64,000 nucleotides of DNA from a virus (Duplodnaviria; Heunggongvirae; Uroviricota; Caudoviricetes): positions 1-64,000 of IMG/VR virus record IMGVR_UViG_3300049811_000196. One strand, 5' to 3'. The position numbers were made by a program, and so were the translations under genes. Of this stretch, positions 15,671 to 58,360 are shown piece after piece. How positions within the stretch are numbered: position 1 is the first letter of the stretch; the number at the start of each line of letters is the position of its first letter. Under the pieces are notes generated by a model, which did not search any database, had not been told where the DNA came from, and saw nothing but the letters and a program-made list of their open reading frames with translations.

Positions 15671-15710
15671 CACAAAGGTTTCAATGTTTAACACATTTCA
15701 ATCAAAGAAC
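15671..15710. repeat. ~40-nt repeat, copy 1
   Basis: cacaaaggtttcaatgtttaac(a/c)(c/t)atttcaat(c/a)aaag shared with copy 2. Confidence 0.7.
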
Positions 15711-16276
15711 TATTTTAACCATTTTTTAATTGCTTTATTGCTAACACCGTATTTTCTACCTGTTGCGGAATATCCATTTTGAGATACTTCAGACATTAAG
15801 GTGTCAATATTAGGTCTTTCAACTTTTCTTTTTGACATGTAATTACATGTTTTACATTTTTTACCCCACTTTGATTTTTCACAACCACAATCTTCACATA
15901 GATATTTTTTGGGTTCTTTAATCATTATCCATCTATCTTTTTTTTCATCAAATTCCGAAATTTTATCTTTTATTTTTTCAAAAAATAGATCCGGCGAATG
16001 GTGTTCTCTATGACAATTTGAACAAAAAACATCACATTTTTCAAATTCTTCCAATATAAGTTTCATTGAAGTGTTGCTCAATGTTCTTTGATCTAATTGA
16101 AATTTTTTTGTTTTTGGATCTCGATGGTGAAAATCAAATGCCGCCAAATTTTTATCATATCCGCATTTTTGACATTTTCCTCCTCTTAATAAAATAAGAT
16201 GATACTTTCTTTTAAGTGATCTCATTACTTGGTAATCGTAGGTATTTCTTTGGATTTTCATACCAATAAATACCAA
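15710..16276 (-). CDS. HNH homing endonuclease with C-terminal HTH
   Basis: CQKCGY...FDFHHRDPKTK...CSNCHREHH. C-terminal GRKYGVSNKAIKKW. Confidence 0.8.
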   Translation of the reverse strand: MVFIGMKIQRNTYDYQVMRSLKRKYHLILLRGGKCQKCGYDKNLAAFDFHHRDPKTKKFQLDQRTLSNTSMKLILEEFEKCDVFCSNCHREHHSPDLFFEKIKDKISEFDEKKDRWIMIKEPKKYLCEDCGCEKSKWGKKCKTCNYMSKRKVERPNIDTLMSEVSQNGYSATGRKYGVSNKAIKKWLK

Positions 16277-20085: not shown

Positions 20086-20769
20086 CTATTTGATCCACTT
20101 TCTAATCGCGTTGTCACTAACACCAAATTTTCTTCCAACCGCACAATATCCAATTTCATTTACCATTTGAATTAAATTTTCTTTTAGTGGTCTATCAATT
20201 TTTCTATTTGATTTTGAATAACATTCAAAACACTTTTTACTTCTTCTTTTAATTATTTTTCCACAACTACACAAATTATTAATTTTTTCTTGTCTTTTAT
20301 TGTTAATAATTTTCTCACTATTTGAACTTATGATTGTTTTTTTAGTGCTATGATTATGTGTTAATGAATGACAATTAGGACATAGGATTTGTAAATTTTC
20401 TATTTTGTTATTAAACCTATTCCCATCTATGTGATGTAATTCTAATGGTATTTTTTGTCCTAACCATTCTGTTAAATTACATAATTCACATGAATCTTTT
20501 TTTACTCCATCCTCAATCAATTTTTTTCTTAGTCTTGATGATGGGATTATTATATCATTATTCGAATAATATAAAGAAGGTTTGCGATTTTTACCTGATT
20601 TTTTTCCTCTAAGTCCTCTATTACCGATATATGTTATATTTAATTTTTTTAAATAATTTTCTAACGTTATCGGTTTACATTGAAATACTTTACAAATACT
20701 TGATTTAGATTCATTATTATTAATCATTTCAATAATTAAATCTTTTTTTTCTAATATATCATTTCTCAT
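20086..20769 (-). CDS. HNH homing endonuclease with C-terminal HTH
   Basis: LELHHIDGNRFNNKIENLQILCPNCHSLTH. C-terminal GRKFGVSDNAIRKWIK. Confidence 0.8.
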   Translation of the reverse strand: MRNDILEKKDLIIEMINNNESKSSICKVFQCKPITLENYLKKLNITYIGNRGLRGKKSGKNRKPSLYYSNNDIIIPSSRLRKKLIEDGVKKDSCELCNLTEWLGQKIPLELHHIDGNRFNNKIENLQILCPNCHSLTHNHSTKKTIISSNSEKIINNKRQEKINNLCSCGKIIKRRSKKCFECYSKSNRKIDRPLKENLIQMVNEIGYCAVGRKFGVSDNAIRKWIK

Positions 20770-35600: not shown

Positions 35601-36017
35601 TCAGAGAGAAACCTGAATTTTATTTTTTTCAAACCATTCTTCAAGTGTGAATACGTTGTATTCAATTCCCTGAATATCATATTTGTCAAAAGAATACCCC
35701 ATGAATTCAACTTGTTCAAAAAATGTTTCTCCAATTGTTTTATGTTCTTTCCAATCTTTATCCTTGAAATATTCCAATACATCAAAGACAAATTTCTCTT
35801 TGCTTTCATATTCAAATGGAATAACAACATCAGATGAATATGTGTATCCATCACCGATTGTATGACATAAGATTAGTTTCATTTTATACTGTTTTAGTTG
35901 TAAATGATGCGGTCTATTACGGATTCGAACCGAAATTACTGCATAGACAGTGCAGCGTGGTACCATTACACTAATAGACCATTTATTGTTTTTTAAAAAT
36001 TTTTGGCGGATTTTCAC
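35601..36017 (-). CDS. hypothetical protein
   Basis: 138-aa ORF. The alternative-frame ORF 35582..35854 is less likely. Confidence 0.35.
   Translation of the reverse strand: MKIRQKFLKNNKWSISVMVPRCTVYAVISVRIRNRPHHLQLKQYKMKLILCHTIGDGYTYSSDVVIPFEYESKEKFVFDVLEYFKDKDWKEHKTIGETFFEQVEFMGYSFDKYDIQGIEYNVFTLEEWFEKNKIQVSL
35910..35980 (-). tRNA. tRNA-Asp (GTC)
   Basis: Acceptor GGTCTAT/ATAGACC. Anticodon arm CTGCA-CTGTCTA-TGCAG. Confidence 0.8.
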
Positions 36018-36930
36018 CGTAACTTCTTATCCATTTTCTAATTGCGTTATCACTAACGCCATATTTTTTTCCAGTACCAACATACCCCAATTCTTTAATT
36101 TCTTTAATAAGAATTTCAAGTGATGGTCTAAAGACCTTTCTTTGTTTTAATTTTGCACATGTGCAGCAAATCCGATCTTTTGATTTAATTATGTTTCCAC
36201 AAGGACAAAAATATGTTTTACGAATTCTTTGTTTTTTTTCTTTTTTACTAAAAATACCAAACGAATAATTTTCTTTTTTATCGGCAGAATTTAAAATTTT
36301 TTCCAATTCAAAAAGAAAAGTGTTTAAATTTTTTTTAACCTCACTTTCTGTAACCCTAACAACAACCCACCCATTTTCTTTTAGGTGTTTATCTTTTTTT
36401 TCATCTTGATTTTTTCTTTCCTCAAGTTGATGTTGTGATCCGTCTATTTCTACCGCAACTTTTTCATTTAAAAAAGCAAAATCAATAAAAAAGGGGAATA
36501 CCGACCATTCTCTTTCAATTCTATATTTTTCACCCCAATTCTCCAATGTTATCTTATCTAAAAATAATCTTTCAGGGTATGATAGATTTTTTTTCCTCCA
36601 TGCTGTTTGTTCGGGATTATTTTTCATGAACAACAAACGCTTTTCTCTCAATTTTTGCTTACTTTCTTCAGTATGTTTAAATGGGTATTTTATAATAGAT
36701 ACCCTGCGAGCATCAGATTGGTTTCTTATCTTATCTGCTAATAGTTTTCTTATTGTTTCAGAGTGAATTTTAAATTTTTTCCTTAGATCATTAATAGAAA
36801 ATAATTGATTCACATACAAATCAATTATTTCGTTTTTAACTGAATTAAGATGTTTACATGCTTTTTCGTGAGATAACATTTGTTTACCCTTTAATTTAAA
36901 CTCTTTTTTACATATTGAACACTTTTGCAT
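35983..36930 (-). CDS. DUF559/Vsr-like (PD-(D/E)XK) homing endonuclease with Zn-ribbon and C-terminal HTH
   Basis: FIDFAFLNEKVAVEIDGSQH...GWVVVRV. CPCGN...CCTCAK. GTGKKYGVSDNAIRKWI. Confidence 0.7.
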   Translation of the reverse strand: MQKCSICKKEFKLKGKQMLSHEKACKHLNSVKNEIIDLYVNQLFSINDLRKKFKIHSETIRKLLADKIRNQSDARRVSIIKYPFKHTEESKQKLREKRLLFMKNNPEQTAWRKKNLSYPERLFLDKITLENWGEKYRIEREWSVFPFFIDFAFLNEKVAVEIDGSQHQLEERKNQDEKKDKHLKENGWVVVRVTESEVKKNLNTFLFELEKILNSADKKENYSFGIFSKKEKKQRIRKTYFCPCGNIIKSKDRICCTCAKLKQRKVFRPSLEILIKEIKELGYVGTGKKYGVSDNAIRKWIRSYGENPPKIFKKQ

Positions 36931-37535: not shown

Positions 37536-37798
37536 TTACTTAAAGATCTATGTTTTCTTAAATCTTTTCTGTATAAACAGTTCGGAACAAGGCAATATCA
37601 TCCTGCTTCGCCCATTCACAACGAATAATAAATGACATTTTATGTTGGTACTGTTTCATTTGAAAAATTTAAGTTTTATTTCTTTTACAAAGATATATAT
37701 AAATATTGTAAAAACAAACAAAATTCAAAAAATATTTTTTTTGTGTGGATCATTCCGGGATCGAACCGGAGACATGGACATTTATAATTATAAAATTG

Positions 37799-37870
37799 TG
37801 ATTCCAGTGGGATTCGAACCCACGTAAATACTTTTAGAGAGTACTGTTTTAACCACTAAACTATGGAATC
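37799..37870 (-). tRNA. putative amber-reading tRNA, anticodon CTA
   Basis: GATTCCA-TA-GTTT-AGTGGTTA-AAAC-A-GTACT-CTCTAAA-AGTAT-TTAC-GTGGG-TTCGAAT-CCCAC-TGGAATC-A. All arms canonical, U33, A37. Confidence 0.7.
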
Positions 37871-38572
37871 GAGTTTTTTAAATGCTTTTACCCATTTTCT
37901 GATTGAATTATCTGAAACACCGTATTTTTTTCCGGTACCAACATAACCTAAAACTTCAATATCATGTAATAAAGTCATATAATCTGGTCGAGGTACTTTT
38001 CTAAGGTGTTTGTTTTTATTAATGTGATGGTGAGCATCAAGTATTTTGGGTTCTTTCTTATTTTTTTTGTTTTTAATGTTTTTTCCGCAATGAGTTTCTA
38101 AAGTGGCATTACAATTTGGGCATAAAAATCTTAAGTTATTTAATCTATTATCATCATTAACGCCGTTTATATGATCTAAAATTAATGATATTTTTTTACC
38201 GTTCCATATTCCAATATTAGAACATAAAACACATTTATACTCCAATACGTTTTCTTTTATTATGCGTTTTTTTAAAGATGTCCTATCGTATGTTGAATTT
38301 TCAACTAACATGTCCAACATTGGTGTTTTATAACCATTGTTAGGATATTTCCGAAGAAAAGAACTATGATTTAAAAAATGGGATACATCAAATCCATTAT
38401 CCATAATCAATTTTTTAATTTTTTTATAATTACTTCCATTAATGTTCCAACCCAATTGAATCATTACATCTTTATAAGTTTCACTGTTTTTAATAATTTG
38501 CAATAAATTGTCCATATATGATAAATATGGACATATAATCAAAAAGGTTCGATGGTTCGAAAAAAAAAACAA
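37856..38572 (-). CDS. HNH homing endonuclease with C-terminal HTH
   Basis: DHINGVNDDNRLNNLRFLCPNCNATLETHC. C-terminal GTGKKYGVSDNSIRKWV. The 3' end overlaps the tRNA(CTA) 5' end by 15 nt. Confidence 0.8.
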   Translation of the reverse strand: MFFFSNHRTFLIICPYLSYMDNLLQIIKNSETYKDVMIQLGWNINGSNYKKIKKLIMDNGFDVSHFLNHSSFLRKYPNNGYKTPMLDMLVENSTYDRTSLKKRIIKENVLEYKCVLCSNIGIWNGKKISLILDHINGVNDDNRLNNLRFLCPNCNATLETHCGKNIKNKKNKKEPKILDAHHHINKNKHLRKVPRPDYMTLLHDIEVLGYVGTGKKYGVSDNSIRKWVKAFKKLDSIV

Positions 38573-52636: not shown

Positions 52637-54415
52637 ATGAATAGGAAAATTGAACAGTTAAAAGAGTATGCAAAAATCATCAAAGACACACCATATGCTT
52701 TAAAAACATATCTCCAAACATATGATAATACTCAAAGAAAATATGTTCCCTTGGATTTATTTGAAGATCAAATTCAATTAATCGAAGATTATGAAACCTA
52801 TAATGAAAACATTACAAGAAAATATAGACAAGCGGGTGTAACAACAGTTACAGCAGCTTGGGTTTCTAAGGTTCTGCAAACAGCAAAGGAAGAAAAACCT
52901 GAAAGAGTACTGATTGTTGCCAATAAACGCGATACCGCGATTGAAATGGCGAATAAAATAAGAAACTTTCTTGAGCAATGGCCAGAGTGGATTAATGTTG
53001 GATTTGATCCCGGAAAAAATTCTGAAAGTAGATTTAGGTTAAATAATGGATGTGAGGTTAAAGCGGTAGGTACGTCTGCGGATGCTCTTCGTGGTTATAC
53101 CCCCACTATTCTTATATTAGATGAAGCGGCATATATTGAAGCCGGAGAAGATTTCTGGGCGGCATCTATGGCGTCACTTTCAACTGGTGGTAAAATTATT
53201 CTCATATCAACTCCACAAGGATTTGACCCAATATATTACGCAATATATGATCAAGCGTTAAGGGGATTAAATGATTTTCATATTACAGATCTACGTTGGT
53301 TTAAAGACCCAAGATATAATAAAGATTTAAGGTGGGTTAAGTGTAGTGATATTGTTCATTATATGTTAAACAGAGAACAATATAACGATGATGAAGTCAC
53401 ATTTTGGGATTTTGACTTAAAAAACTATCAACAATATTTGGAAGAAGGGTATAAACCATATTCAAGTTGGTTTGAATCCATGTCCAAAAAATTCAAATAC
53501 GATAAACGTAAAATAGCTCAGGAACTTGAGGCAGATTTCCTCGGATCTGGAGATGGTGTTATCCCAAGTGATTTCCAAGATAATATTGCAAAAAATATGA
53601 TTAGAGTTCCCATTGAAAAATATATGCAAGGAACTGTTTGGCAATGGAAAGAACCAGTTGCTGGTCATAGATATATAATGGGGGTTGACGTAAGTAGAGG
53701 AGATAGTGAGGATTTCTCAGCCATTAATATAATCGATTTTGATGATCGGGAACAGGTCTTAGAATACATTGGTAAAATACCCCCCGATGATTTAGCAGCT
53801 ATTGCATATAAATGGGGAATACTATATGGGAACGCATTTATAGTTACTGATATTACAGGAGGTATGGGCATTGCTACTTCAAGAAAATTACAAGAATTGA
53901 ATTATAAAAATTTATTCATAGACGGTATCAATACACAAAACATTTGGGAATATAATAAAAAAATTATGGAGAAAATTCCCGGAATAAATTTTAATAACAA
54001 AAGAACACAAATAATCGCATCATTTGAAGAACATGTTAGAAAAGGATTTGCTATAAGGTCTGCTAGATTATTAAATGAGTTAAGTACGTTTGTTTACATA
54101 AACGGAAGACCCGATCACATGAAGGGTTCACATGACGACGCAATTATGAGTATATCGATGGCTATTTATGCCGGAGACATCTCTTTTAATCAATTGGAGA
54201 GAGCATCATCACAAAATAAAGCCATTTTGGATTCTTGGGCTTTATCTGAAAGAACATATGAACCAAACAAAAGTTTCTATTCGTATGGAACAAGTTTAGA
54301 TCCAATCGGGTCGATGTTCGCGGGAAATAATCGATTAATTAACGACGTTACCCCATATGATAACCCAAAAGAGGCTTATCAGAAGTATTCTTGGCTATTT
54401 AAAAAACCGAAATAA
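52637..54415 (+). CDS. terminase large subunit (T4 gp17-like)
   Basis: 592 aa. ATPase segment ILILDEAAYIE. Nuclease-like C-terminal MGVDVSRGDSEDFSAI...HDDAIMSISMAIYA. Immediately upstream of portal. Confidence 0.8.
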   Translation: MNRKIEQLKEYAKIIKDTPYALKTYLQTYDNTQRKYVPLDLFEDQIQLIEDYETYNENITRKYRQAGVTTVTAAWVSKVLQTAKEEKPERVLIVANKRDTAIEMANKIRNFLEQWPEWINVGFDPGKNSESRFRLNNGCEVKAVGTSADALRGYTPTILILDEAAYIEAGEDFWAASMASLSTGGKIILISTPQGFDPIYYAIYDQALRGLNDFHITDLRWFKDPRYNKDLRWVKCSDIVHYMLNREQYNDDEVTFWDFDLKNYQQYLEEGYKPYSSWFESMSKKFKYDKRKIAQELEADFLGSGDGVIPSDFQDNIAKNMIRVPIEKYMQGTVWQWKEPVAGHRYIMGVDVSRGDSEDFSAINIIDFDDREQVLEYIGKIPPDDLAAIAYKWGILYGNAFIVTDITGGMGIATSRKLQELNYKNLFIDGINTQNIWEYNKKIMEKIPGINFNNKRTQIIASFEEHVRKGFAIRSARLLNELSTFVYINGRPDHMKGSHDDAIMSISMAIYAGDISFNQLERASSQNKAILDSWALSERTYEPNKSFYSYGTSLDPIGSMFAGNNRLINDVTPYDNPKEAYQKYSWLFKKPK

Positions 54416-54448: not shown

Positions 54449-57433
54449 ATGGCTGATAAAAATTTAACAGTATTTCAAAGGTTAACTAAAATGTTTGGTT
54501 TTCCTGGTGAAGTTAAACAGGAAAAACAATCACCTAGATTTGAATTTAACAAAGATCAAATACTAAAAACAGATAGCATAGAAGATTATGAAAAAGCTCG
54601 TCTTCAAGCGCAGCAAACACAATACATTGTAGATAAGTGGGCAAAATTAGATCAATCTTTATATAATCAATCTGTATATTATGAACCAAACAGATTGGCG
54701 GCATATTATGATTACGAATCTATGGAGATGTGTATTTTGGGGGACACAAAAATAGCAACTCCTGATGGTTTTGTAACCATTAAAGAATTAGCAGATAGGG
54801 GGAGAGATTATGAATTTATAACATATGCATATGATCATAATCTTAAAAAAGTAGTTCCTGCTATAGCTAGAAATGCCCATTATACGAGAGATGACATGAC
54901 CTATAAGATTACTTTCGATGATGGTTCTCACATTATTGCGACAGAAACCCATAGATTTTTAAAAAGAGATGGTGTTTTTGAAGAACTACGAAATTTAAAG
55001 GTTGGTGACTCAATGATGCCGTTTTATAGAAAATCATTCTATAATAATCAAAATTATAATTGGGTCTATGTATGTAATTCAAAAGAAGGACATAACGGAT
55101 GGGTTCCTGAACATAATTTAATTGCGGAATGGTATTTTAAGAAGAAAATAAATAAAGAAGAAGAGGTTCACCATATTGATTTTAATGGTAAAAATAATCT
55201 ACCATCTAATTTGTTGATAATGGATAGATCTGAACACCGATCTTTTCACGCAAAGATAAATAATGAAAAATTATGGTCAAATCCAAAGTATAGATTATTA
55301 ATGTCGGAAGTCGCAAAAAGAAAGGGTAAATATAATTGGAATGGTAAGAGGAAGGGTAAAAATAATCCTTCGTACATCGATATTTCATTTAATGAAATTA
55401 TCGAGGTTTCAAAAATACATAGAACTCAAGAAAAAACTGCAAAACATTTAGGAGTGTCTGTTGCAAAACTACAAGATGAACTAAAATTAAATGGTTTTAA
55501 AAATTGGGATTTATTTTTGGATGTTTACGGTATTAAAAAATTAATTCCACAAACGGAAAATAGAGAATCAATAAATTTTAAACATGTTCCTTGGGATTTA
55601 ATTATTGAATCTGCTAAAAAATATAAATCAATACGCAAAACATCTGATTTTATTGGTATAAGTAGATCTAAATTAATGTCATCATTAAGAATGAACGGTT
55701 ATAAACGATGGGACACTTTTTTAGATGCATATGGAATAGAAAAGTCGAAAATAGGTAGAGATATAAAACATGATAAAATAACCATTAATCATAAAATAGT
55801 ATCTATCGAACCATATGGAGTATTCCCCGTTTATGATTTGACTGTTCCAGGGTATAAAAATTTCGCAACAGACACTATTTTTTCCCATAATACCCCCGAA
55901 ATATCCGCAGCTTTGGATATATACGCAGAAGAATCTACTGCGGTATCTGAAAAGGGGGAGATATTGACAATATTTTCTGAATCGGATAGGATTAAAGAGA
56001 TTTTAACGGATTTGTTTGTTAACAAATTAGACATAAATACAAATCTACAGATGTGGGCTAGGGGTATGTGTAAATACGGGGATAATTTTGTTTATTTAAA
56101 AATAGATCCGAAAGAAGGTATCGTTGGATGTCAACAACTTCCAAATATTGAAATAGAGAGGTGGGAAGGAACTGGAACAAAAACACCAACTCAAAATGAT
56201 ATCAAGTCTCCGGTTAGAGAATTGAGATTTAAATGGAATAATAAGGATTTGGAATTTCAGTCTTGGGAAATCGGTCATTTTAGACTTTTAGGTGACGATA
56301 GAAAACTTCCATATGGTACGTCAATGTTGGATAAAGTTAGAAGAATTTGGAAACAACTTCTTTTAGCTGAGGATGCTATGTTGATTTACAGAACCAGTAG
56401 AGCACCTGAACGTAGGGTCTTTAAAGTATTTGTTGGTAACATGGACGATAAAGATATTGAACCCTATATACAACGTATTGCCAATAAGTTTAAGAGAGAT
56501 CCTATTGCTGACCCAAAAAACGGTCAAGTTGATATGAGATATAATCAAATGGCTGTTGATCAGGATTACTTTATACCCGTAAGAGATCCGTCACAAACCA
56601 ATCCGATTGAAACTTTACCGGGTGCTCAGAACTTGGGAGAAATTGCGGACATAGAATATATTCAGAAAAAATTATTAACTGGATTAAGAATACCTAAAGC
56701 GTTTCTTGGATTTGAAGAAGTTGTGGGTGATGGTAAATCTTTGGCTTTAATGGATATCAGATTTGCGAGAACCATTAATAGAATACAAAAATCATTAATT
56801 CAAGAATTAAATAAGATTGCATTAATGCATCTTTATTTATTGGGTTTAGAAGATGAACTAGACAATTTTTCGTTATCCTTAACTAACCCATCCGCACAAT
56901 CCGATCTATTAAGAATAGAACAATGGAAAGAAAAAATTGCGTTATATAAAGACGCAACATCAGATCAATCCCAATTAGGTATTTTACCTGTTTCCCATAC
57001 TTGGGCAAAAAAGAATATTTTAGGAATGAGTGATGCTGAAGTTATTCTTGATTTACAACAACAAAGATTGGAAAGAGCAATGGGATTTGAGTTAACAAAT
57101 ACCCAAAACGTGATTAAAAGATCTGGTGTATTTGATGAGGTCGATTCGAGGTATGGTATACCAGAAGAAGAAAGAAAGAAATTAGAGGCTCAAAACTTAA
57201 ACGCCGATAACGATATGAACCCCGGCGGTGGATTAGATATGGGTGGCGGAGCACCACCTCCTCCGGCAGAGGGTGGAGGAGGAGAACCCCCCCTAAGTGA
57301 ATCCTTAAAAAAACATAAATTATTTACCTTAACCGAAGGAACAAACTTAGAAGACTTGTTTGATATGGAAAAGGCTCAACAGAATATTTATGAAATAGAA
57401 AACAAGATAAATAATATTTTAAATGATAAATAA
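54449..57433 (+). CDS. portal vertex protein (T4 gp20-like) containing an intein
   Basis: 994-aa ORF. Extein about 607 aa. Contains a Hint domain with HNH (see intein feature). Confidence 0.8.
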   Translation: MADKNLTVFQRLTKMFGFPGEVKQEKQSPRFEFNKDQILKTDSIEDYEKARLQAQQTQYIVDKWAKLDQSLYNQSVYYEPNRLAAYYDYESMEMCILGDTKIATPDGFVTIKELADRGRDYEFITYAYDHNLKKVVPAIARNAHYTRDDMTYKITFDDGSHIIATETHRFLKRDGVFEELRNLKVGDSMMPFYRKSFYNNQNYNWVYVCNSKEGHNGWVPEHNLIAEWYFKKKINKEEEVHHIDFNGKNNLPSNLLIMDRSEHRSFHAKINNEKLWSNPKYRLLMSEVAKRKGKYNWNGKRKGKNNPSYIDISFNEIIEVSKIHRTQEKTAKHLGVSVAKLQDELKLNGFKNWDLFLDVYGIKKLIPQTENRESINFKHVPWDLIIESAKKYKSIRKTSDFIGISRSKLMSSLRMNGYKRWDTFLDAYGIEKSKIGRDIKHDKITINHKIVSIEPYGVFPVYDLTVPGYKNFATDTIFSHNTPEISAALDIYAEESTAVSEKGEILTIFSESDRIKEILTDLFVNKLDINTNLQMWARGMCKYGDNFVYLKIDPKEGIVGCQQLPNIEIERWEGTGTKTPTQNDIKSPVRELRFKWNNKDLEFQSWEIGHFRLLGDDRKLPYGTSMLDKVRRIWKQLLLAEDAMLIYRTSRAPERRVFKVFVGNMDDKDIEPYIQRIANKFKRDPIADPKNGQVDMRYNQMAVDQDYFIPVRDPSQTNPIETLPGAQNLGEIADIEYIQKKLLTGLRIPKAFLGFEEVVGDGKSLALMDIRFARTINRIQKSLIQELNKIALMHLYLLGLEDELDNFSLSLTNPSAQSDLLRIEQWKEKIALYKDATSDQSQLGILPVSHTWAKKNILGMSDAEVILDLQQQRLERAMGFELTNTQNVIKRSGVFDEVDSRYGIPEEERKKLEAQNLNADNDMNPGGGLDMGGGAPPPPAEGGGGEPPLSESLKKHKLFTLTEGTNLEDLFDMEKAQQNIYEIENKINNILNDK
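54731..55891 (+). mobile_element. 387-aa intein with HNH endonuclease and two HTH modules
   Basis: Starts CILGDTKIATPDG (block A). TETHRF (block B). HNH EVHHIDFNGKNNLPSNLLIMDRSEHRSFH. HTH KTAKHLGVSVAKL and SDFIGISRSKL. Block F VYDLTVPGYKNFATD. Block G IFSHN followed by T. Confidence 0.8.
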
Positions 57434-58172
57434 CATGAATAAATTTGGTGAAATCAAAACAAAAATACTAACAAAATTATCCGAATCTTATTCCGAAAAA
57501 AATAAGAACGAAATAAAAGATATTTTGAATACGTTAAAAAGTAATAAACTCTTTGTGGAAACTTATCTTTTATATGAAGATATAGAAAACAAACATATCT
57601 CAAGTAAAGAAGTTGCAACACATTTTGTTGAGGAACTAGGTAAATCCTTAAAAGGAAGATCGAGCATTTTTAAACCACTTTACAAGAAGTTGAACGAAAA
57701 AATGAAAGATGTTCAACCGTCAAAAAATAAAATTTACGAGAATTTAGATGTTTTAATGGAGAACGATAACTTATTAAATATCGAAAAAAAGTATCAATCA
57801 AAATCAGAATTAATAAAATATTTAACAGAAGAAAAAAAACAAACCGAGACATACGGTTCGGTATTTACGGAAAATGAATCTCTTTTAGCGATTACGCTAG
57901 CCAATGATTTCAATTCATACTTCGAAAACGTATTGGGAGAAAATGAGAAAAAAGAATTACAGACCATTATTGAAATGAACGAAGAAACTATTGTTGAAAA
58001 CACGGAGAATTTAAAAAATGATATTCTTAAAAAAGTAAACTCTCTAATATTAGAATCTACCGATAAATCCTTAATAGATAAATTAAACGATGTAAAAAAA
58101 CAGGTCGAAAACTCAACCCCTTCTAAATACTCTTATTATAAATTAACCCAACTAAAAAATGGTCTTGATTAA
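57423..58172 (+). CDS. putative prohead core protein (gp67/gp68 region)
   Basis: 249 aa between portal and protease. Start overlaps the portal stop. Confidence 0.35.
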   Translation: MINNMNKFGEIKTKILTKLSESYSEKNKNEIKDILNTLKSNKLFVETYLLYEDIENKHISSKEVATHFVEELGKSLKGRSSIFKPLYKKLNEKMKDVQPSKNKIYENLDVLMENDNLLNIEKKYQSKSELIKYLTEEKKQTETYGSVFTENESLLAITLANDFNSYFENVLGENEKKELQTIIEMNEETIVENTENLKNDILKKVNSLILESTDKSLIDKLNDVKKQVENSTPSKYSYYKLTQLKNGLD

Positions 58173-58360
58173 TCAAGACCATTTTTAATTTTTTGAGAAT
58201 AGATAGCTTTCTGAATTTTCTCTCTTTTCCTGACGGATGGTTTTGTGTAAGTCTGTTTGTCTCTTAGAATTTGTAGTTGTCCAGACTTTAGAACTTTGTT
58301 TTTGTAGATCTTTAGCGCCGCCTCCAGATCCTTTTCTTTTTGTACGTGAATTTCTATCAT
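58169..58360 (-). CDS. small very basic protein on opposite strand
   Basis: 63-aa ORF, KREKIQKAIYSQKIK. Confidence 0.25.
   Translation of the reverse strand: MIEIHVQKEKDLEAALKIYKNKVLKSGQLQILRDKQTYTKPSVRKREKIQKAIYSQKIKNGLD

Follow-up and report, generated by a model that had tools for sequence, protein, structure and literature searches.

The HNH endonuclease I-HmuI (PDB 1u3e) of Bacillus phage SPO1 is a homing nickase that is encoded in an intron. Inteins that carry an HNH nuclease in frame are known but rare. Their first mention is credited to Dalgaard et al. 1997 (cited in 10.1101/2025.01.02.630785 and PMC5050341). Among actinobacteriophages they count as a rare, "non-canonical" architecture, and LAGLIDADG nucleases are present in 712 of the 784 inteins surveyed there (10.1101/2025.01.02.630785). 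Portal inteins have been described for mycobacteriophages and actinobacteriophages (PMC5050341, "PORT" of cluster C1) and are polyphyletic (10.1101/2025.01.02.630785), and essential genes riddled with inteins and introns are known from crAss-like and Jug phages (PMC12880540). Here we analysed an insertion in a T4-like portal gene on a 64,000-nucleotide stretch of viral DNA (Caudoviricetes; IMG/VR record IMGVR_UViG_3300049811_000196, positions 1 to 64,000), which is referred to as the window. We interpret the insertion as a canonical class-1 intein nested in an essential gene and assign this reading, in which splicing itself is predicted, a probability of about 0.85.

Like the in-frame HNH inteins described before, the insertion lies in frame within a phage gene and has a class-1 HINT domain that is interrupted by an HNH nuclease between blocks B and F. 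It differs from them in its host protein, a portal of family PF07230, and in a nuclease with one or two helix-turn-helix (HTH) modules of 51 aa and four helices. The portal inteins of actinobacteriophages likewise interrupt a phage portal gene and are sporadic among close relatives, but these portals belong to a different family (InterPro IPR009279) and to high-GC phages. I-HmuI shares the architecture of an HNH nuclease followed by an HTH DNA-binding part. However, its identity to the window nuclease is 18%, it is free-standing within a group I intron and not part of an intein, and its C-terminal domains differ from the tandem duplicated HTH modules of the window. Neither an HNH intein in a T4-like gp20 portal nor the 51-aa HTH module was described in the literature that we searched.

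The stretch 54731-55891 translates to 387 aa (CILGDTK...TDTIFSHN) and the next residue is Thr. The position of the insertion in a gp20-like portal, its initial Cys and the final His-Asn before Thr, as given by the first-pass annotation, were thus exact by translation. Block A corresponds to Cys1, block B to T71-E-T-H74, block F to VYDLTVPGYKNFA (residues 367-379) and block G to TIFSH386-N387, with Thr at position +1. The first-pass annotation had read these four blocks from the sequence, and the intein models of Pfam and NCBIfam agreed with it. The Pfam model Intein_splicing (PF14890) reached 61.5 bits on the insert alone (cut-off 35.8) and 58 bits on the whole protein, TIGR01445 (intein_Nterm) 42.3 bits (cut-off 24.5), and TIGR01443 (intein_Cterm) scored above its cut-off of 15.6. 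An AlphaFold (AF2) model of the intein, built from 24 sequences, showed a mean pLDDT of 86, with 94-98 for the two HINT halves. The top matches of this model in the PDB found by Foldseek were all inteins, namely PI-PfuI, Ssp DnaB, Npu DnaB, Npu DnaE and Mtu RecA (E 1e-6).

The portal sequence closes cleanly across the insertion. The Portal_T4 model (PF07230) matched the full 994-aa protein with an E value of 2.9e-72. When the insert was taken out, the score increased from 244 to 256 bits (607-aa spliced extein, E 5.6e-76) and coverage of the 433 profile positions was extended from 13-425 to 5-425. We aligned the spliced extein, not the full precursor, to other portals with MAFFT. It showed 82-85% identity to 11 intein-free metagenomic portals, and there was no gap at the junction, which reads ...AAYYDYESME[M/F] followed by TPEISAALDIYAEEST... 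in this alignment. The seamless join postulated by the first-pass annotation was thus confirmed. Two portals of cultured phages, from Microcystis and Flavobacterium, were also collinear with the spliced extein (...DYEAMDT followed by D[AP][IL]I...), and the insertion site falls within a motif that is conserved from the clade of the window to these phages. The T4 gp20 structures 3ja7 and 6uzc were matched at 1e-36 over the C-terminal 250 residues of the extein. The BLAST and HMM (hidden Markov model) alignments to gp20 begin only at extein residue ~240-249, and the insertion site, which lies further N-terminal, was placed by eye near gp20 residues ~80-90. Directly upstream of the portal gene lies a gene for a T4-type large terminase (52637-54415; PF03237), and the order terminase then portal is also found in Microcystis phage Mel-JY01 and Flavobacterium phage immuto.

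The residue at extein position -1 (54728-54730) is Met in the window, and Phe in all 11 of the close intein-free portals aligned; the other alleles recovered with an intein have Phe or Tyr. The Met might reflect local adaptation to splicing or be a trace of co-conversion.

A megablast search of 50,697 phage records with the portal gene gave no match, and the best portals of cultured phages were those of Mel-JY01 (42%) and immuto (37.5%). Judged by these comparisons, the phage is one without a close cultured relative. The source is an uncultured, low-GC, tRNA-rich T4-like myovirus.

Since the boundaries are exact, the catalytic residues are present, the curated models score above cut-off and the extein closes seamlessly, we identify the insert as a class-1 intein. 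The insert might instead be a non-splicing domain that is kept in the mature portal, as an exapted HINT/HNH unit, or it might result from an assembly artefact. We regard this as very improbable: each of the four positions critical for splicing is canonical and does not vary among the relatives, the insertion interrupts the motif conserved up to the Microcystis and Flavobacterium phage portals, at least 7 independent contigs in IMG/VR and many in ENA/JGI show the same architecture, and the exact 994-aa protein is independently present in JGI data (P0037). A group I intron or a free-standing homing endonuclease gene was ruled out, as the nuclease lies between the HINT halves in one uninterrupted open reading frame (ORF). 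The features of the portal gene and of the tRNA island discussed below are listed in Table 1.

Table 1. Coordinates of the portal gene, the parts of its intein and the nuclease ORFs of the tRNA island in the window.
Feature	Position	Strand	Description
Portal precursor ORF	54449-57433	+	994 aa, T4-like portal, PF07230
N-extein	54449-54730	+	94 aa, ends ...YYDYESMEM; gap-free against intein-free portals
Intein, N-terminal HINT half	54731-55045	+	residues 1-105; TIGR01445, Intein_splicing, pLDDT 94-98, Foldseek
HNH nuclease domain	55097-55318	+	residues 123-196
HNH core motif	55163-55249	+	E145-VHHIDFNGKNNLPSNLLIMDRSEHRSFH173
HTH module 1	55382-55534	+	residues 218-268, four helices
HTH module 2	55586-55738	+	residues 286-336, helices 288-333; tandem duplicate of module 1
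Intein, C-terminal splicing half	55784-55891	+	residues 352-387; TIGR01443, 25.7 bits; strands 355-386, pLDDT 88-97
C-extein	55892-57433	+	begins with Thr+1 (TPEISAALDIYAEEST...), stop codon included; PF07230, gp20 structures, spliced-extein alignment
Island HNH ORF	15710-16276	-	second half of core CSNCH; Cys4 ribbon and GxKYGVSxNAIxKW HTH
Island HNH ORF	20086-20769	-	second half of core LCPNCH; Cys4 ribbon and GxKYGVSxNAIxKW HTH
Island HNH_4 protein	29696-30253		N-terminal HTH
Island DUF559/Vsr-like nuclease	35983-36930	-	PF04480, 51 bits; same C-terminal ribbon-plus-HTH
Island HNH ORF	37856-38572	-	second half of core LCPNCN; Cys4 ribbon and GxKYGVSxNAIxKW HTH

The nuclease part had been annotated as HNH with two HTH modules, and this assignment was borne out. 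The residues H147/H148, N152, N155/N156, H169 and H173 of the HNH motif are all intact in the window copy, and they are conserved in the 12 relatives that retain the domain, down to an overall identity of 34%. The AF2 model shows the HNH core as beta-beta-alpha (strands 144-148 and 161-165, helix 166-182), as expected for a beta-beta-alpha-metal fold. A basic, poorly modelled linker connects the core to the HTH modules, each of which is predicted to form four helices. When one module was searched against the other, they showed 43% identity over 53 aa with an E value of 2e-16, and the duplication of the module is therefore real. No Pfam model scored above its cut-off on the 51-aa module (the best was HTH_50 with 16 bits), and no PDB structure was detectably similar in sequence to the nuclease region of the intein.

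The established pathway of class-1 inteins consists of an acyl shift, transesterification, cyclisation of Asn and an O-N shift. From the residues present, the 994-aa precursor of the window would follow the same chemistry, with an N-S acyl shift at Cys1, transesterification to Thr+1, cyclisation of Asn387 and an O-N shift. The HINT domain (Cys1, T71xxH74, His386-Asn387, Thr+1) would excise itself and ligate the 94-aa N-extein to the 513-aa C-extein, which would give a normal portal of 607 aa. The predicted HNH (beta-beta-alpha-metal) nuclease between the HINT halves and the two tandem HTH modules that follow it, either released or still embedded, would recognise the continuous portal sequence of a phage that infects the same cell. 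They would nick or cut the intein-free allele at or near the empty site, between ...GAATCTATGGAGTTT and ACTCCTGAAATT..., and recombinational repair from the intein-bearing genome would copy the intein into the empty allele. The analogy with I-HmuI suggests that the enzyme may only nick DNA, which it would contact module by module over an extended stretch. We hold this model of activity, which derives from sequence features, with less confidence than the identity of the intein.

We compared the intein to its relatives at the same site. The intein query recovered 36 proteins (P numbers), and 7 loci (L numbers) came from IMG/VR. Including the window, 14 intact inteins occupy the identical portal site. 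Two modules are present in inteins of 371-391 aa (window, P0001, P0005, P0006, L004, L005 and the distant P0017 and P0019), and one module is present in inteins of 320 aa (P0002, P0003, P0004 and L006), the retained module being module 2. In two inteins of 252 aa (P0009, P0011) the HNH domain is precisely deleted and one module is kept. The 938-aa portal of L006 is common to L007-L010. Position 1 is Cys or Ser among the 14 inteins, block B contains [T/S]xxH and SHN is invariant, as are the block B, F and G residues in general. Position +1 is Thr in nearly all relatives and Cys in P0004.

The divergence of the intein did not follow that of the portal. Compared to the window, L004, L006 and L005 showed 70, 72 and 67% identity in the intein and 81, 61.5 and 50% in the extein, respectively (overall ranges 65-72% for the intein and 50-81% for the extein). 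Such a pattern is expected of an element that is transferred from one portal lineage to another. The polymorphism in presence and absence, the variants with a decayed nuclease and this incongruence together match what a homing cycle would be expected to leave in the sequences.

Several observations weigh against an active homing intein. The intein is rare in its portal clade (~1% or less). At least 7,988 portal homologs are in the database, and among the 120 best of them the insert was present in a single one, the window's own protein (P0037, an identical 994-aa protein from a JGI contig of 82,566 bp). In the DNA of IMG/VR loci, the site was empty in at least 74 of 80 close loci, with synonymous variation. 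Such rarity fits a young invasion as well as a nuclease that no longer homes efficiently. The Pfam model HNH_3 (PF13392) stays below its cut-off in the window copy (18.7 versus 24.8 bits); it is among the precomputed Pfam domains of the relatives P0003, P0004, P0008, P0017 and P0019. In the related contigs P0010, P0012/P0031 and P0013/P0028 the reading frame is broken inside the intein, which splits the portal into two ORFs on one contig, for example on a contig of 153,690 bp. These breaks could be sequencing errors or real decay. Finally, we infer splicing and cleavage from conserved residues only.

Some of these observations would also suit a splicing intein whose HNH domain is a relic that no longer homes, is inherited vertically and is on its way to a mini-intein. 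The scarcity of the intein among thousands of close portals, the same-site relatives that lack HNH (the 252-aa inteins) or one HTH module, the low HNH_3 score and the GC content of the nuclease part, which is the lowest with 0.273 compared to 0.33 in the window, all favour such a relic. However, the window copy has lost no residue of the HNH motif, the 12 relatives with this domain conserve all of them, and the incongruent identities of intein and extein argue for transfer between portal lineages. We consider a relic unlikely and retain the interpretation as an intein with a putatively functional homing nuclease.

The first-pass annotation had also proposed that the HTH modules of the intein resemble the C-terminal GxKYGVSxNAIxKW helix of the free-standing HNH genes in the tRNA island, and that a single endonuclease lineage moves between inteins and free-standing sites. 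The island contains 27 tRNA genes in 24 kb (13897-37870, minus strand), interleaved with the five nuclease ORFs of Table 1. We examined the proposal by comparing the proteins in pairs, by profiles and via bridging sequences. With an HMM built from 18 intein-type modules, the two modules of the intein scored 83 and 75 bits and were the only hits in the window; the island ORFs scored 1.6-2.5 bits, which is the level of random ORFs. With hhalign, the intein module and the island HTH matched with a probability of 0.2% in the register of the first-pass annotation, and the best local match (16%) was in another register. Tblastn of the intein against the window found only the 29-aa HNH core of ORF 20086-20769 (E 0.58), and no DNA similarity between the intein and the island genes was found in the window. 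The resemblance of the HTH parts was thus statistically undetectable.

The two kinds of nuclease also differ in their parts. The HNH core of the intein lacks the Cys ligands of the island HNH cores (C-x-x-C-H or C-x-x-C-N), its linker lacks the Cys ribbon, and its 51-aa module has an additional helix, GYKxW..F..AYGI. Free-standing HNH-Zn ribbon-HTH nucleases of phages, as in Salmonella phage PHA46 and in the island ORFs, share with the intein the HNH_3-like core motif HHxDxNxxNNxxxNL, whereas their Cys4 ribbon and GxKYGVSxNAIxKW HTH are missing from the intein. Free-standing HNH genes of reference phages showed 43-51% identity to the intein core over 52-58 aa; the best island gene showed 31% over 58 aa.

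A link between intein and island was seen through intermediates. The HNH protein of PHA46 (WVO01592.1) matched intein residues 123-252 with 33% identity over 133 aa (7e-5, whole phage collection) and ORF 20086-20769 from the HNH core to the HTH with 30% over 125 aa (E 8e-10, five island proteins searched). The metagenomic protein P0277 (E 3.2e-8, 1.8 billion proteins searched) matched the HNH half of the intein with 29% over 140 aa and 4 of the 5 island proteins in the ribbon/HTH or HNH-to-HTH region with 26-39%. The E values of the bridges against the island (8e-10 to 3e-10) come from searches of only five to seven proteins. By eye, the cores of PHA46 and P0277 are ~50% identical to the intein core over ~50 residues. 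The PHA46 and P0277 alignments set the HTH of the intein in different registers, and we therefore take the HTH part as alignment spill-over and not as evidence.

A common lineage of the intein nuclease and the island HNH genes that exchanges within this genome and shares the HTH helix would fit the identical order of parts (HNH, then HTH), the matches of PHA46 and P0277 to the HNH half of the intein and to the Zn-ribbon/HTH half of the island proteins (30-39%), and the pairing of GVS with GVS, in the register originally proposed, in the PHA46 alignment. It is at odds with the direct comparisons, which were all at noise level (HMM, hhalign, tblastn and DNA), with the disagreement of the two bridges in HTH register, with the lack of a Zn ribbon and the extra helix in the intein, with the Cys ligands found in the island cores and not in the intein, with the closer relation of the intein core to free-standing HNH genes of reference phages, and with the presence of the island module on the DUF559 nuclease, which is not an HNH enzyme. 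We consider such a lineage quite improbable, and the proposal could not be upheld as it was stated; the HNH core is linked only via intermediates. In our reading, the HNH cores of intein and island are members of a single broad, HNH_3-like family of phage homing nucleases, with a deep relation via intermediates at the level of the superfamily, and the ribbon-HTH unit of the island and the 51-aa unit of the intein are different DNA-binding modules. Homology of the intein HTH with the island HTH is unproven, and nothing in the comparisons indicates a recent exchange between intein and island in this genome.

Within the island, the C-terminal unit RPxxxxL...GYxxxGxKYGVSxNAIxKW is common to the ORFs 15710-16276, 20086-20769, 35983-36930 and 37856-38572 (all minus strand). 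The pairwise identity of the unit is 42-63%, the catalytic domains differ, and in 3 of the 4 ORFs a Cys ribbon precedes the unit. This looks like shuffling of a DNA-binding module between homing nuclease families.

Related inteins with HNH and module were also found in other proteins: in dCTP deaminase (Aphanizomenon phage CL131 and P0212), in an actin-like protein (P0023, P0025) and in RNR (P0034). The closest intein of a cultured phage is that in the dCTP deaminase of CL131, with 24.5% identity over the full length.

Further inteins were observed at other sites of related portals. Five metagenomic T4-like portals of 2,100-2,800 aa (P0205, P0165, P0178, P0171, P0177) contain several HNH inteins each, with 3-5 stretches that match the HNH domain of the window and 4-6 Intein_splicing stretches per protein. 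No description of portals with multiple HNH inteins was found in the searched literature. The 1,386-aa portal on the 484-kb genome of an uncultured phage (L003 1782-5942; LR756508.1) harbors three inteins, after LPYGK, after WKQL and after LEGK, the third of which bears an HNH domain related to that of the window. The insertion site of the window is empty in this portal (DYETMD/TDAIISAALD; slashes mark insertion points). The L005 portal has a second insertion at residues ~548-972, between WTRNT and CKYGDNF, which is also present in P0004. It begins with Pro, ends with ...GVFLSN before Cys+1 and contains a block-F Cys (DVYCLEAV) and an HNH motif; by its sequence it looks like a class-3-type HNH intein. 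In P0239, a mini-intein lies 8 residues upstream of the HNH intein (...VHN/SDFSEMEY/CLGAE...), and in P0240 a related HNH intein with two modules and Cys+1 is inserted ~5 residues upstream of the site in the window (...ILSN/CEMESTPELSAALNIY). The insertions in P0239 and P0240 show that neighbouring sites in the same conserved portal motif are used.

As a broader and tentative interpretation, to which we give somewhat less than even odds, the T4-like portals of this abundant uncultured group and its relatives form an unusually dense hot-spot of inteins from one radiating HNH-intein lineage. The DNA-binding array may be modular, with 0, 1 or 2 copies of the 51-aa HTH unit, and the lineage may have hopped among at least 4 portal sites as well as into dCTP deaminase, the actin-like protein and RNR. 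Some portals reach 2,300-2,800 aa with 3-5 HNH domains, and some have a Pro-first, class-3-like HNH intein. If this is true, the intein of the window is one member of a natural series that shows how a nuclease is retargeted by gain and loss of HTH modules.

Portal inteins, HNH inteins and intein-rich phage genes being already known, the intein of the window is a genuine, well-formed but fairly ordinary selfish element, and it opens no new mechanism. For annotation, the 994-aa ORF should be treated as an intein-bearing precursor with a mature portal of 607 aa. The element adds a defined HNH-type intein to the T4-like gp20 family, and its natural variants (two-module, one-module and nuclease-deleted, with Cys1 or Ser1) cover stages of the homing cycle. 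Inteins of the HNH type are uncommon, and a compact Thr+1 intein from a low-GC phage with a separable nuclease could be of interest to intein engineers. The related portals with multiple inteins, which lie outside the window, are a richer observation than the window intein itself.

Two short ORFs on the minus strand (55206-55388 and 55831-56034; 60-67 aa) lie opposite the portal gene and are taken to be chance ORFs that face a long coding region. A gene for a homolog of ribosomal protein S21 (58169-58360, minus strand; PF01165, 44.4 bits with a cut-off of 27) is located just downstream of the portal gene, and an S21 gene also follows the portal gene on the contig of an intein-free relative (P0038). 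In the tRNA island, a tRNA with a CTA anticodon (37798-37870, minus strand) was called tRNA-Pyl by ARAGORN and is a putative amber suppressor.

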